This document shows positions 11,955-18,675 of a stretch of DNA of 64,000 bases, one piece after another (the first letter of the stretch is position 1; every line of letters starts with the position of its first letter). Source of the DNA: a virus. The position numbers were made by a program, and so were the translations under genes. Below the pieces are notes generated by a model. It had not been told where the DNA came from. It did not search any database and saw nothing but the letters and a program-made list of their open reading frames with translations. The stretch is from the IMG/VR virus record IMGVR_UViG_3300032167_000022; one strand, written 5' to 3'.

Positions 11955-12416
11955 CTACAAATTAGCTTCAGGACAACTTTGTAGAAATTCTCTTAACTCC
12001 ATTAGACATTTTCCAAGCATATTGTGTCCAATATTATTACATACACCCCAATACGTATCATTCCAAGTATTACCTTCAATTAATTCACTATCTCCAGTAG
12101 CAATAAGTTTATCTCGTAATTCTAATGAAGTTGTAAATTTAAGATAAAGACCCAGTTTCATTACCATTACACGAGCAGTATCCCAGTCAGCGCGTAATTT
12201 TACACCTCGGCCTAAATATTTAGCTCTACCTGGAGTAGCGGCTGCGGCGATTCTTTTTCGTTCTTCTATATCAGATGTTTTCATTGCTTGAAAGAAATGT
12301 TCATTAGTAGGATAAATAATTCCATCATATTCAAATGGTGAATTATAAAAATTACTTAAAAAAGCATATTCTCCATTAAAACAATCAATTCTATTTCCCA
12401 TTTTTAAAAACTCCAT
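11955..12416 (-). CDS. NADAR (YbiA-like) domain protein
   Basis: FLSNFYNSPFEYDGIIYPTNEHFFQAMK is the NADAR signature. Confidence 0.75.
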   Translation of the reverse strand: MEFLKMGNRIDCFNGEYAFLSNFYNSPFEYDGIIYPTNEHFFQAMKTSDIEERKRIAAAATPGRAKYLGRGVKLRADWDTARVMVMKLGLYLKFTTSLELRDKLIATGDSELIEGNTWNDTYWGVCNNIGHNMLGKCLMELREFLQSCPEANL

Positions 12417-13239
12417 TCATCTTGGACATAATGCCGACAAAAGGAATATTAATATTATCTTTATGTCTACTAATGCTATGAAGATGTTTAATTGCGGCAA
12501 GAGTATTTACATCTTCTGGAATAATTCTATATCTAATATAATTATCCAACTCTTTATAAGTAAATCCAAAATTTTCTTCATCAGTTTTACCGCACATACC
12601 ATCATCGGGAGCTTTGCCTACAATATAATCCGGTAGACCAAGAGCATAGCCAATTTGACAAACTTCTGTAGCAGTATAATCTGCTAAAGGACTAAAATCA
12701 CCTACGCCATCGCCATACTTTGTAAAATATCCAATATAATCTTCAGATAAATTACAAGTATTTACTACTCTACCTCCATTTTCAAGGGCTGCCGCAATTG
12801 CATAAAGAGTAGTCATACGAATTCGTGCGGGTAAATTTGTTGTAACAACAGAATTATCCTTGAAATTAATTTTATAATCAATTGGTGTGGGACAATAATC
12901 ACAAAATGTATTATCAAATGCGTTATAAATGGCTTTAGTTGTGTCGCCAATATTTACTGTAAAATAATTAATTCCAAGAATATTACAGACATCTTTAGCA
13001 CAATCTACATCACATTTTCGCATATTACCATCGGGAATAATAATACCATATACTCTATTTTTTCCAAGAGCGGCGGTACAAAGAGCAGCACAAACCGCAG
13101 AATCCTTACCGCCAGACATTCCAATTACTGCTGGAGAATTCGGTCCATTATCAGCAAAATATTCCTTAATCCAATCAATAATTTTATTTTTCTGAAGTTC
13201 AGCATCAAACACATAATCTGTATTAAAAATAGTACTCAT
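12391..13239 (-). CDS. nadE: NH3-dependent NAD+ synthetase
   Basis: PP-loop GMSGGKDS and NadE-like length and motifs. Confidence 0.85.
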   Translation of the reverse strand: MSTIFNTDYVFDAELQKNKIIDWIKEYFADNGPNSPAVIGMSGGKDSAVCAALCTAALGKNRVYGIIIPDGNMRKCDVDCAKDVCNILGINYFTVNIGDTTKAIYNAFDNTFCDYCPTPIDYKINFKDNSVVTTNLPARIRMTTLYAIAAALENGGRVVNTCNLSEDYIGYFTKYGDGVGDFSPLADYTATEVCQIGYALGLPDYIVGKAPDDGMCGKTDEENFGFTYKELDNYIRYRIIPEDVNTLAAIKHLHSISRHKDNINIPFVGIMSKMNGVFKNGK

Positions 13240-13242
13240 AAT

Positions 13243-14466
13243 TTAAATACCTTCTTTCAATCTATAATTTACAGCGTTTTTCAAATATTCAGCATAATTT
13301 TCATCCTGACACATAGTCTTGCCCGGAACGTCACTAAGCTTTGCTACTGGATGACCATTAACATACTGAAGTTTAATAACAATATTTAAAGGTTCAACAT
13401 TAGTATCATTACTAAGATAGGTACCAATACCAAAACTTACATTAACTCTATCTTTGAAATGATTATAAATTTTCTGTGCTCTATCAAAATTTAAACTGTC
13501 ACTAAAGAGAAGTGTCTTAGTTTTTGGGTCAATACCAAGCTTTTCATAATGAGCAATAATCTTTTCACCCCATTCAATAGGGTCTCCACTATCATGGCGA
13601 ACACCAGTATAGCACATTGCCTGAAGCTTATTGAAATCCATAAGGAACAGGTCAGTTCCAAGTGTATCCGTAAGAGCAGTACCATTATCACCCTGATATT
13701 CATCAAACCACTCTTCCATTGCCATCTTATTAGTATATGCAAGAGTTACGCCCGGCACACCCTGATACATCTGGACATATTCATGCGCGTAGGTGCCAAT
13801 AGGTTTACAACCATACTTCATAGCGAGAAATACATTGGATGTGCCAACACAGTGTCCGGTAGCAAGCAGTTCGCCAAGAACATAATCCTGCCATTCGCGG
13901 CTAAGACGTCTGCGGCAACCGAATTCTGCGAACTTGAAATCATAAATTTCCATGCGGAACTGATTAATCTTAAACATAAGTTTTTCTCTTGCGCTCTTTA
14001 CAAGAGCAAGATAATCATACTTCATGCGGAAATATACTTCATTCACAATTTCAAGAAGATAGATTTCAAACTGCATAGCACTAAAGAGCGGACCATTTAC
14101 CTCAATATGAAGTTCGCCTTCTGTGTTATCAGTAATTTCCTTATCTTCATGTGTTTCAAGCCAGACCTTTACATACTGGCGAATAGGGTGCCAGAGCCGC
14201 AGGAATTCAATGTAGTCCTTTTTGATAAATCTCAGAGATGCGAGATAATCAAGCTCTTCATCAGTAAAAGTCAGAGTACAAAGATGATTAATCTGTTCGC
14301 TGATTTCATCTACCATTGCTTTAGTAAAACGCACATCTTTATTGCGACATTTAAAAATATATGTACCATTAAGATTGGTATGCTTATGGAACATTACCTG
14401 ATTCATATTAAATTTATAAAGGTCAGTATCAAGAAGCGATACAATAATAGGACTAAGTTTCATCAT
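13243..14466 (-). CDS. pncB: Nicotinate (or nicotinamide) phosphoribosyltransferase
   Basis: The N-terminal LLDTDLYKFNM signature of the NAPRTase/NAMPT family, about 400 aa. Confidence 0.8.
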   Translation of the reverse strand: MMKLSPIIVSLLDTDLYKFNMNQVMFHKHTNLNGTYIFKCRNKDVRFTKAMVDEISEQINHLCTLTFTDEELDYLASLRFIKKDYIEFLRLWHPIRQYVKVWLETHEDKEITDNTEGELHIEVNGPLFSAMQFEIYLLEIVNEVYFRMKYDYLALVKSAREKLMFKINQFRMEIYDFKFAEFGCRRRLSREWQDYVLGELLATGHCVGTSNVFLAMKYGCKPIGTYAHEYVQMYQGVPGVTLAYTNKMAMEEWFDEYQGDNGTALTDTLGTDLFLMDFNKLQAMCYTGVRHDSGDPIEWGEKIIAHYEKLGIDPKTKTLLFSDSLNFDRAQKIYNHFKDRVNVSFGIGTYLSNDTNVEPLNIVIKLQYVNGHPVAKLSDVPGKTMCQDENYAEYLKNAVNYRLKEGI

Positions 14467-14468
14467 AA

Positions 14469-16928: not shown

Positions 16929-17477
16929 TTATTTTAAGTACCTCTTAATTTCTTCTCTATGAGCATAAACATACTCAGGAACCATCTTGCGCAAGCTTTC
17001 CAATTCATCGTGTTTAATAGCAAACCGCACGTCAGTTCCGCTAATATTATGAACCCGAGGAATAAATTTAAAACTAATATACTCTCTTTCTTTCGGGCCA
17101 AACCAACTAAGAGGAATTTCTGGTTCATCAATATAATAAAGTGTTAGAAATTCATCAAAAGTTTTATTTATCATATTATTATATAAATATTCGCCCCATT
17201 CATGAGTATTATGACCTTCATCATTTTGGTCATTTAGGGCATGAATAAAAATATGCTTATGAAAATCAGATTTTATTTCTTGATAAATAGAACCTTTTAC
17301 CAAAGATAATCGTTCATTAATAGGAATAGGATTTCTAATAGTTCCAGATTTATCAGCACTACCGATAAAAATATGAACATCATTATTATTAATTAAACCA
17401 TCACTAAGAGCTTTTTTTACCATATATAAATGTCCATTATGAAAAGGTTGCGCTCTAAACAAAATTACATTAGTCAT
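16929..17477 (-). CDS. nadD: Nicotinamide/nicotinate mononucleotide adenylyltransferase (NMNAT/NadD-like)
   Basis: ILFRAQPFHNGHLYMV is the (H/T)xGH cytidylyltransferase motif, with NMNAT-like length. Confidence 0.75.
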   Translation of the reverse strand: MTNVILFRAQPFHNGHLYMVKKALSDGLINNNDVHIFIGSADKSGTIRNPIPINERLSLVKGSIYQEIKSDFHKHIFIHALNDQNDEGHNTHEWGEYLYNNMINKTFDEFLTLYYIDEPEIPLSWFGPKEREYISFKFIPRVHNISGTDVRFAIKHDELESLRKMVPEYVYAHREEIKRYLK

Positions 17478-17833
17478 TCTTTTTCCTCCGGTTCTATAAT
17501 TCCTAACAATTTATATATTTCTTCAATCATACCTGCGCCAGCATTTATTTGGTCTATATTTTCATGTTCAATCCAATGCGCCATACCCACACCAGCCATA
17601 AATAGTTTATATGTCATATTGTCTGGAAATGCTTCTTTTACTAAAGTCTCTAATTCTTCCACATTTTTATTAACAATACATGTTGCATATACTAATTCAT
17701 TTTCTGGAAGAGGCGAAGCTCGGTTAAACTGTTTAAGAATTTCTCTTAACATTTGCTTATAAGCATATTCTGGACTACCCATTAATAAACACCTCTTAAT
17801 CAAACTGTGGCATGCGATTTGGATTAGATTCAA
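17474..17833 (-). CDS. Hypothetical protein
   Basis: 119-aa ORF. Confidence 0.3.
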   Translation of the reverse strand: MNLIQIACHSLIKRCLLMGSPEYAYKQMLREILKQFNRASPLPENELVYATCIVNKNVEELETLVKEAFPDNMTYKLFMAGVGMAHWIEHENIDQINAGAGMIEEIYKLLGIIEPEEKE

Positions 17834-18140
17834 GCCAATGTTCTTCTCTGTTTACAGTATGCTTACATCCTTTTGGACAAATTTTATAAGTATATCTTAC
17901 CTTTTGCTTTTTATACTCATCTCCACTACTACCATTTGGGTCAGAATAAACACATACATTTTCTTCAATTATTTCTTGTTCTGTAAAAAAAGATTTACTT
18001 AAATAATAATCATCACATTTTTTACAATATATAAATTTACCATTTTGAATTTCTTCAGCAATTTCTACTGCTTTTTTTACTTCATTTAATTTCTCTTCAA
18101 TGTTTTTAGCGTTTAAAATTCGTTTGAGTTCTTCATTCAT
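17796..18140 (-). CDS. Hypothetical Cys-rich protein
   Basis: 114-aa ORF with CxxC pairs. Confidence 0.3.
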   Translation of the reverse strand: MNEELKRILNAKNIEEKLNEVKKAVEIAEEIQNGKFIYCKKCDDYYLSKSFFTEQEIIEENVCVYSDPNGSSGDEYKKQKVRYTYKICPKGCKHTVNREEHWLESNPNRMPQFD

Positions 18141-18141
18141 A

Positions 18142-18675
18142 TTAAATTACCTCAATTTGGCAACTTCTCATAGTTTCAAGAGCGGCTTCATGCTTCTCAG
18201 GAGTTACACCAGCGCACATATCTGCCAATACACTAATTTTAATATCTGGGAAAAATATCTTGGCGGCAAGCACATTAGAAACTACGCAGATATCAGTACA
18301 AAGGCCGCAAAATTGAAGCTCTACATCCCAATTATAATCATTGGCAATATCTTTAATATAATCCATGAGTTCCAGAGAGCCAAAAGTGGGTTTTTCAATT
18401 ACCAAAGGAGAATAACAGAATGGTGCAGTCAATTCATCGGGAATATTCCAACCTTCAGTATCCTTAATACAATGCGGCACAGGCAACTTCTTTCCTTCTG
18501 GCGTATTAAGATAATCATCATAATGAGTATCTTTAGTAAAAATTACTGTTACATTATCTTCAATTTCATTAAGCATTTTTGCCATCTTAGGAACAATAGC
18601 TTGAGCTTCTGGAGTTCCAAGAGAGCCATTAATAAAATCATTCTGCATATCAACTACAATAATAATCTTTTCCAT
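18142..18675 (-). CDS. pncA: Isochorismatase-family hydrolase, probable nicotinamidase (PncA)
   Basis: IIVVDMQNDF N-terminal motif and a catalytic Cys context (CGLCTDICV). Confidence 0.7.
   Translation of the reverse strand: MEKIIIVVDMQNDFINGSLGTPEAQAIVPKMAKMLNEIEDNVTVIFTKDTHYDDYLNTPEGKKLPVPHCIKDTEGWNIPDELTAPFCYSPLVIEKPTFGSLELMDYIKDIANDYNWDVELQFCGLCTDICVVSNVLAAKIFFPDIKISVLADMCAGVTPEKHEAALETMRSCQIEVI

Follow-up and report, generated by a model that had tools for sequence, protein, structure and literature searches.

A 64-kb window of the IMG/VR virus record IMGVR_UViG_3300032167_000022 (the window being the whole stretch of DNA analyzed) carries at positions 11955–18675 a real, intact and recurrent phage cluster of genes for salvaging nicotinamide adenine dinucleotide (NAD+), which rather probably represents a four-step nicotinamide salvage pathway encoded in two co-expressed units and keeping up the NAD+ pool during infection. 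The evidence consists of family identity, intact catalytic motifs, recurrent synteny and transcription signals. In the proposed scheme, the chemistry of which is very probable judging from the sequences, PncA would deamidate nicotinamide, the pyridine released whenever an NADase, Sir2 or TIR protein cleaves NAD+, to nicotinate and ammonia, and PncB would convert nicotinate, phosphoribosyl pyrophosphate (PRPP) and ATP to nicotinic acid mononucleotide (NaMN), while an adenylyltransferase of the NadM/archaeal type and an ammonia-dependent amidase of the NadE family would complete NAD+, in either order. The module would most likely hold the NAD+ pool during infection, also when host defenses degrade NAD+. 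As stated in the original prediction, six open reading frames (ORFs) located here on the minus strand encode a nicotinamidase, a nicotinate phosphoribosyltransferase, an adenylyltransferase, an NAD synthetase, a NADAR protein and a macro domain; Pfam and NCBIfam hidden Markov model searches confirmed these families and reassigned no ORF to an unrelated one (Table 1). Likewise, families and intact catalytic motifs bear out the claim that the four enzymes together suffice in principle to regenerate NAD+ starting with nicotinamide.

The best PDB matches of PncA are the nicotinamidase of P. horikoshii (1IM5, E 7e-16) and PncA of M. tuberculosis (3PL1). Its catalytic triad D9/K95/C130 and the metal ligands D49, H51 and H68, corresponding in the alignment to D52, H54 and H71 of P. 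horikoshii PncA, show no variation among 15 distinct phage homologues (catalytic residues were compared across 10–21 distinct phage homologues per enzyme), and the D-x-H...H metal site setting nicotinamidases apart from other isochorismatase-like hydrolases is present. The curated equivalog model NF008623, representing the E. coli type, is failed at 33 bits versus a cutoff of 174, with a match to the N-terminal 54 residues only; by sequence, the phage enzyme is nearer to the short archaeal/mycobacterial type than to the E. coli type. In the case of PncB, the equivalog models TIGR01514 (431 bits, cutoff 270) and NF003704 (497 bits, cutoff 379) are both exceeded, and the domains PF17767 and PF04095 are found. 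The GTYAH228E motif, in which we take H228 to be the ATP-coupling (phosphohistidine) residue as in Salmonella PncB, is kept in all homologues covering the site. An assignment as Nampt or Namat, the enzymes of the NAD+ reconstitution pathways (NARP) 2 and 1, respectively, was rejected because the PncB equivalog score is far over the cutoff; the match to the nicotinamide phosphoribosyltransferase PHROG is weak (E 2.5e-24).

The adenylyltransferase was the weakest initial assignment of the set. A profile of 42 homologues matched the NMN adenylyltransferase (NMNAT; NMN, nicotinamide mononucleotide) of M. jannaschii, 1F9A, over its full length (E 6.5e-14), and the other above-threshold PDB matches were NMNAT, NadM or NadR, with the exception of the uncharacterized 3GMI, none of them being NadD. 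Moreover, the top 18 Foldseek matches of the AlphaFold (AF2) model, having a predicted local distance difference test value of 90, are NadM or archaeal NMNATs (template modeling scores 0.62–0.79), with NadD structures ranking clearly below all of these, and no NadD model was among the NCBIfam matches. The motifs H13-N-G-H16 and I-S-G-T148-D-V-R151 are present, HxGH and T148/R151 of ISxTxxR being invariant in homologues. NadD is thus ruled out by profile and structure comparison, and the enzyme, originally labeled NadD-like, is by sequence and model an NMNAT of the NadM/archaeal class. The NadE candidate (282 aa) reaches 159 bits with TIGR00552 (cutoff 64) and is predicted to be ammonia-dependent because it consists of a single domain, a glutaminase part being absent. 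Its P-loop S42GGKDS47 (SGGxDS) is kept in nearly all homologues.

The NAD genes lie inside a 33-kb block in which all genes run leftward (minus strand). Three strong hairpin terminators are found here, each directly followed by a sigma-70-like promoter with extended −10 region. This promoter element is the 29-mer TTGATTTTTATAAAAAAATATGATATAAT, composed of the −35 box TTGATT, a 17-nt spacer, the extended −10 TG and TATAAT. It occurs on the minus strand of the window in nine exact copies and several close variants (24 matches observed versus 4.2 expected when allowing up to one mismatch), often directly 3' of a hairpin terminator, and probably drives one temporal class of phage genes. In contrast to the one leftward operon proposed originally, terminators and promoters predict two adjacent transcription units for the NAD genes, each between a hairpin terminator and the identical 29-nt promoter. 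Predicted unit A comprises, in this order, the Thg1-like gene, PncA, two uncharacterized ORFs, NMNAT and one small ORF, while predicted unit B consists of DUF5662, macro, four uncharacterized ORFs, PncB, NadE, NADAR and DUF5067. As the promoter is identical, the two units should be co-expressed. The pathway genes are interleaved with unrelated and uncharacterized genes, among them the two overlapping ORFs of unit A, for which no homologues were found in related loci other than those of near-identical strains, and the four small ORFs of unit B, showing no significant family, marginal matches to PHROGs without assigned function and no conservation in related loci.

Table 1. Position and assignment of features in and around the NAD gene cluster, listed in the direction of transcription, and sites of the promoter-like element throughout the window.
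Feature	Position	Strand	Evidence or remark
Hairpin terminator (19623–19601), then promoter (19598–19570) opening unit A	19570..19623	minus	9-bp stem, 5 G-C pairs, T tail
Thg1-like tRNA-His guanylyltransferase (3'-5' polymerase), first gene of unit A	18688..19551	minus	PF04446 E 2e-29; phrog_4717 E 9e-88; not NAD metabolism
PncA, nicotinamidase (nicotinamide to nicotinate and NH3)	18142..18675	minus	Isochorismatase PF00857 E 4.5e-27
Two overlapping uncharacterized ORFs (17796–18140, CxxC-rich; 17474–17833)	17474..18140	minus	without Pfam or PHROG match
NadM/archaeal-type NMN/NaMN adenylyltransferase	16929..17477	minus	CTP_transf_like E 2.6e-6, over cutoff
Boundary of units A and B: 55-aa ORF (16762–16929), terminator (16760–16729), promoter (16730–16702)	16702..16929	minus	14-bp stem, then TTGATTTTTATAAAAAAATATGATATAAT
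DUF5662, probable divergent HD-like metal-dependent hydrolase	16148..16666	minus	recurrent in phage PncA/PncB clusters
Stand-alone macro domain, DarG type, candidate ADP-ribosyl glycohydrolase	15677..16147	minus	PF01661 E 7e-6, over cutoff
Four small uncharacterized ORFs between macro and PncB (15295–15696, 15051–15314, 14846–15028, 14469–14834)	14469..15696	minus	
PncB, nicotinate phosphoribosyltransferase (nicotinate, PRPP and ATP to NaMN)	13243..14466	minus	NAPRTase_N and NAPRTase
NadE, NH3-dependent NAD synthetase family, amidating nicotinic acid adenine dinucleotide or possibly NaMN	12391..13239	minus	PF02540 E 3e-48
NADAR domain protein, YbiA family	11955..12416	minus	PF08719 E 1.6e-30; TIGR02464 91 bits (cutoff 74)
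DUF5067 protein (11422–11910), last gene of unit B, then terminator (11422–11386) and promoter (11387–11359)	11359..11910	minus	PF16729 E 6e-21; 17-bp stem; 29-mer variant
29-nt promoter-like element	7149, 11359, 16702, 19570, 25182, 25278, 27797	minus	nearly invariant TTGATTTTTATAAAAAAATATGATATAAT
29-nt promoter-like element, further sites	48464, 51239, 56604, 57677, 58493, 59351, 59709	minus	

The window, having a G+C content of about 30%, is clearly phage DNA, with 23 tRNA genes, phage promoters and PHROG families, and also encodes GyrB, RNase H, PhoH, an RNA ligase and many further PHROG-matching ORFs. As a megablast search of the region against 50,697 phage records gave no match, the lineage is without representative in isolate collections. 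A gut or rumen member of the Bacillota is probably the host, considering that the promoter is sigma-70-like with an extended −10 region, that a DUF5067 gene is present and that the nearest DUF5662 homologues in bacteria are from Clostridia.

Clustering of the NAD genes is not due to chance, since PncB is rare in phages (21 of the 50,697 records, most of them belonging to huge or uncultured gut phages) and the same gene set recurs by PncB in many distinct viral contigs. A PncB-seeded scan of IMG/VR resulted in 19 loci representing 12 non-redundant groups (62–83% identity, contigs up to 299 kb). Near PncB, PncA is found in 11 of the 12 groups, DUF5662 in nine, NadE in seven and the NadM-type NMNAT in four. 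Tight five-gene arrays are present in locus L025 (NMNAT-NadE-DUF5662-PncB-PncA) and locus L037 (PncB-NMNAT-PncA-NadE-DUF5662), and two other loci (L020 and L022) show similar five-gene arrays with Pfam-annotated gene calls. In one further group, a related phage (L011) encodes at 11578–12825 a 415-aa fusion of a NadD-type adenylyltransferase (FNPIHWGH ... ISSTLIR) with NadE, connecting the final two steps of the pathway in Rosetta-stone fashion. The exact arrangement of the window was found on 19 contigs with identical PncB from several ENA and JGI samples; these reach the 50–200 kb class, and relatives with 70–81% identical PncB are located on contigs of 214–299 kb. Judging from these gene neighborhoods, PncA and PncB, the nicotinamide-specific entry pair, form the conserved core, with NadE and NMNAT being variable. 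Adenylyltransferase and NadE functions are provided by essential enzymes of the hosts, with which a variable phage supply of the last steps is consistent; these downstream steps could be left to the host.

A recurrent fifth gene encodes DUF5662, probably a divergent HD-like metal hydrolase, for which neither literature nor a sequence-detectable PDB relative was found. Its link to NAD genes is strong but not exclusive: roughly half of the viral groups seeded with DUF5662 are located in NAD clusters, whereas the remaining ones, a paralogous subgroup, are surrounded by genes that by sequence inspection appear to encode thymidylate synthase, dCMP deaminase and DHFR. A corresponding association in bacteria was rejected, as DUF5662 was never found beside PncA, PncB or NMNAT at 80 loci from gut Clostridia genomes. 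It adjoins there genes for an MBL-fold hydrolase, Dtd, the elongation factor EF-P and an Xaa-Pro peptidase (inspection of translated neighbors). With none of these 80 loci showing it, the DUF5662-NAD gene link is phage-specific. One may speculate that DUF5662 hydrolyzes an ADP-ribose-derived compound or removes pyrophosphate as a helper. Being widespread, without literature and repeatedly embedded in NAD clusters, it is a concrete target for biochemical characterization.

The macro domain gene encodes a protein of 156 aa consisting of the macro domain only, i.e., the DarT-binding C-terminal domain is absent, and no ADP-ribosyltransferase gene adjoins it in Pfam and PHROG scans. It matches the DarG model NF048014 (E 3.5e-19, 69 bits, below the cutoff of 250), and its best PDB matches are the DarG macrodomains 5M3I and 5M31 (M. 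tuberculosis, T. aquaticus). The ADP-ribose-binding glycine loop is kept, CQGVMGSGVA aligning with VGVMGKG[IV]A of DarG, while QDK is found where DarG has TKKH, and the lysine (K80 in T. aquaticus) is shifted by one or two residues according to the alignment used. From thymine, ADP-ribose is removed by DarG2 macrodomains. The NADAR protein, the start of which is possibly an internal ATG at 12401 (on other contigs it is called as 148 aa), matches E. coli YbiA (2B3W, E 1e-22), with the NEHFFQA and NDTYWG motifs as well as the glutamate of LIE aligning; the role of the latter is taken from previous work (PMC11125620). NADARs including YbiA and phage gp30.3 hydrolyze guanine-linked ADP-ribose on DNA (PMC11125620), and orphan NADARs of phages, termed AdfN, overcome DarTG1, being defined functionally by removal of guanine-linked ADP-ribose from the DNA of the phage and restored plating on DarTG1 hosts (Johannesman et al., 2025, PMC11825919). 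As in AdfN, the NADAR and macro proteins of the window stand alone without a toxin partner. However, the window NADAR is YbiA-like, a group almost absent from phages (PMC11825919), and in contrast to DarG2 the macro protein is without the DarT-binding domain, the alignment of its catalytic lysine being ambiguous. By analogy, the two are better read as separate orphan DNA de-ADP-ribosylases, DarG1-like and DarG2-like, respectively, which would most likely free phage nucleic acid of the ADP-ribose attached by DarT-type toxins.

Regarding the sequence of the last two steps, archaeal NadM accepts both NMN and NaMN and is partnered by either an NAD or an NMN synthetase, and the F. tularensis NadE homologue acts as NMN synthetase (PMC3376133). 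The best PDB matches of the phage NadE, P. horikoshii NadE (2E18, 117 bits) and this F. tularensis homologue (3FIU, 111 bits), are nearly equal. The class of the adenylyltransferase bears on the mechanism: the substrate range of archaeal NadM and the resemblance of NadE to both synthetases are compatible with NaMN being converted either via nicotinic acid adenine dinucleotide (NaAD) or via NMN to NAD+; by sequence, either route may be used. A Francisella-type order, in which NadE would amidate NaMN to NMN and the NadM-type enzyme adenylate the latter, so that the route would not be the classical Preiss-Handler one, would fit the NadM/archaeal instead of NadD character of the adenylyltransferase, the close bit scores and the described pairing of NadM with NMN synthetase, the F. 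tularensis homologue included (PMC3376133). Still, it is considered somewhat doubtful, since the bifunctional archaeal NadM is paired with ordinary NAD synthetases in archaea and Acinetobacter (PMC3376133), and the NadD-type::NadE fusion in the related phage implies the NaAD route there. A different extension would be to regard NADAR and macro as parts of one integrated system with the four salvage enzymes, reversing ADP-ribosylation and recycling the products to NAD+, in line with the original prediction, which had bundled them with the salvage genes. All six genes are indeed found within 6.7 kb, PncB, NadE, NADAR, macro and DUF5662 fall into the same predicted transcription unit, and the arrangement is kept on 19 contigs of the phage. 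Nevertheless, such integration is very unlikely, as NADAR is within 10 kb of PncB in none and macro near PncB in only two of the 12 non-redundant groups (at a distance of 5–7 kb), and NADAR and DarG-type macrodomains cleave ADP-ribose from guanine and thymine, respectively, in DNA (PMC11125620; PMC11825919), yielding a product unused by the four enzymes; an Adps- or Namat-type enzyme able to reuse ADP-ribose was not found in the window. Accordingly, action of the two proteins on ADP-ribosylated substrates, as proposed earlier, holds insofar as they would release ADP-ribose from modified DNA bases, but they would supply the pathway with no nicotinamide. With the linkage unconserved and the released ADP-ribose unused by all four salvage enzymes, they are neighbors in a counter-defense/repair region and not pathway parts. 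DUF5662 could instead be an integral part, giving an as yet unrecognized five-component NAD+ reconstitution system of gut Bacillota phages (PncA, PncB, NadM-type NMNAT, NadE and DUF5662) that defeats Sir2-, TIR- and DSR-type depletion and would be a fourth, mechanistically distinct NARP, with DUF5662, for example, hydrolyzing an ADP-ribose-derived product or immune signal or pulling three pyrophosphate-releasing reactions forward. This, however, is regarded as quite improbable.

Returning to the four-step salvage pathway itself, NAD+ reconstitution is known to counter NAD-depleting defense (Osterman et al., preprint 10.1101/2024.02.11.579819; NARP3, PMC13464706). A counter-defense reading is plausible, and the chances of a genuine counter-defense role appear about even. 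Indirect support comes from a neighborhood rich in repair and counter-defense-type genes, i.e., Thg1-like, RNA ligase (phrog_968), polynucleotide kinase (phrog_505), several phosphoesterases, NADAR and macro. The main rival is a general metabolic booster without specific immunity role, providing NAD+ for the large replication and repair program of the phage or complementing a salvage-deficient host. In favor of this reading, the NAD pathways of phages frequently complement those of their hosts and NAD-consuming enzymes are numerous in NAD-jumbo phages (Li et al., 2024, PMC11662467), ordinary infection by jumbo phage PA5oct leads to upregulation of the pncA-pncB1-nadE operon of the host (PMC7318152), the ATP-costly four-step route suits steady supply, and DUF5662 paralogues in thymidylate-synthesis blocks fit a general nucleotide-metabolism region. 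On the other hand, the conserved core is the nicotinamide-specific entry step, with PncA at nearly all loci, and NADase defenses release nicotinamide, the neighboring genes are of the repair/counter-defense type, and an NAD-dependent enzyme such as LigA was not found when the 50 scanned ORFs of the window were searched for LigA, Nudix, PRPP synthetase, PnuC, NadR and Sir2, none of which was detected. A mere booster function is therefore judged to be the less probable explanation, albeit the two roles are not mutually exclusive. Several points weigh against a complete salvage pathway serving counter-defense. PncA and NMNAT score below the curated NCBIfam equivalog cutoffs, and hence their substrates are only inferred; enzyme activities and defense evasion are here predictions from sequence. 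The four-step route costs PRPP and three ATP-consuming steps and would be slower and dearer than the two-enzyme NARP routes in acute NAD+ depletion, with neither a PRPP synthetase nor an ADP-ribose-recycling enzyme found in the window. Furthermore, shared gene direction means little when the entire 33-kb block is on one strand, and many related phages are without NadE or NMNAT near PncB, indicating that selection does not act on the complete pathway as a unit in every case.

The original prediction had considered the arrangement undescribed. However, 174 gut NAD-jumbo phages with complete salvage or Preiss-Handler pathways have already been reported, some having pncB-nadD-nadE physically clustered and with phage pncA being mentioned, and counter-defense against Sir2-type NAD+ depletion was proposed there as well (Li et al., 2024, PMC11662467). 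Common to both are clustered pncB, adenylyltransferase and nadE genes on the genomes of large gut or rumen phages and a proposed NAD+-sustaining role. In contrast to these phages, the adenylyltransferase of the window is of the NadM/archaeal type instead of NadD, the cluster includes PncA, thus enabling a nicotinamide and not only a nicotinate route, DUF5662 is embedded, and Bacillota are indicated by the type of promoter and the nearest homologues in bacteria, as opposed to the assignment of the Kuafu clade to Bacteroidota; DUF5662, NADAR and macro neighbors are not described in that study. New in comparison with the latter are, hence, the NadM-type adenylyltransferase, the PncA-PncB core, the recurrent DUF5662, the two-unit architecture with its promoter and, in this lineage, the adjacent orphan DarG1-like and DarG2-like hydrolases.

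Among the validated phage pathways restoring NAD+, NARP1 consists of Adps and Namat and NARP2 of Nampt and Nmnat (preprint 10.1101/2024.02.11.579819), while NARP3 combines PnuC and NadR (PMC13464706); PncA, PncB, NadE and the Preiss-Handler route are not mentioned in these two reports. NARP2 (Osterman et al., 2024) and NadV/NatV of Vibrio phage KVP40 are likewise phage-encoded and lead from nicotinamide to NAD+ with an NMNAT-class adenylyltransferase. NARP2, however, has been validated experimentally and takes two steps via NMN with Nampt, whereas the window cluster, known from sequence, would take four via nicotinate and NaMN with PncA, PncB and NadE; NMNAT is present in the window, but Nampt is absent. 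NARP1 differs in reusing ADP-ribose via ADP-ribose pyrophosphate and NARP3 in importing nicotinamide riboside, and their proteins are absent from the window scan: the 50 scanned ORFs include no PRPS-like protein, no PnuC and no NadR kinase domain, and the phosphoribosyltransferase is a PncB equivalog. Chemistry and enzyme families are the same as in bacterial four-step salvage (PncA-PncB-NadD-NadE, PMC9316036) and its archaeal and Francisella NadM variants (PMC3376133), the latter being closest to NadE and NMNAT of the window, but the phage version is viral, split over two units with phage promoters and interleaved with phage-specific ORFs. The three validated phage pathways for rebuilding NAD+ comprise two genes each, and NAD+ depletion is among the commonest outcomes of bacterial immunity; if true, the nicotinamidase four-step route would mean that phages have taken over the whole classical deamidating salvage pathway, for which the PncA-PncB core offers a simple test construct. 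As such clusters recur in large gut and rumen phages, they are of value for annotation and phage engineering, and anti-defense finders covering NARP1 and NARP2 only would miss them.

Flanking the NAD genes are the genes for the Thg1-like enzyme (18688–19551), the RNA ligase phrog_968 (21525–22931), the polynucleotide kinase phrog_505 (9347–9934) and two metallophosphoesterases (8794–9375 and 10374–11057). The Thg1-like enzyme is a tRNA 5'-end repair enzyme, and the five genes together resemble a tRNA repair set, possibly countering anticodon nucleases. At 46231–58609 (minus strand), the 23 tRNA genes of the window include a suppressor tRNA with anticodon CTA reading TAG (47207–47301; 'Pyl' according to ARAGORN) and an odd tRNA-Ser(ACT), pointing to possible TAG recoding in part of the phage genome. 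Inside this tRNA array, a protein with phosphodiester glycosidase (NAGPA) and SPOR peptidoglycan-binding domains is encoded (52095–52955, minus strand), which may act on the cell wall, and adjoining the array is a gene for a DUF2828 and DUF7788 protein, possibly of the TROVE/vWA type (43184–44701, minus strand).

Unusual for a phage is a protein of 803 aa (30765–33176, minus strand) that combines a shoulder domain of the Major Vault Protein with a vault repeat and similarity to SPFH proteins, and several further SPFH/flotillin genes are located at 7290–7967, 8283–8753 and 20048–21031. The sole plus-strand block, having a higher G+C content (0.37–0.39) and an opposite GC skew, encodes two proteins with the N-terminal domain of the major tropism determinant (Mtd_N, 34430–35806 and 40223–41350), possibly serving in receptor binding or as targets of a diversity-generating retroelement. 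In the 2-kb stretch 60001–62000, for which no long ORFs are listed, the G+C content falls to 0.18.

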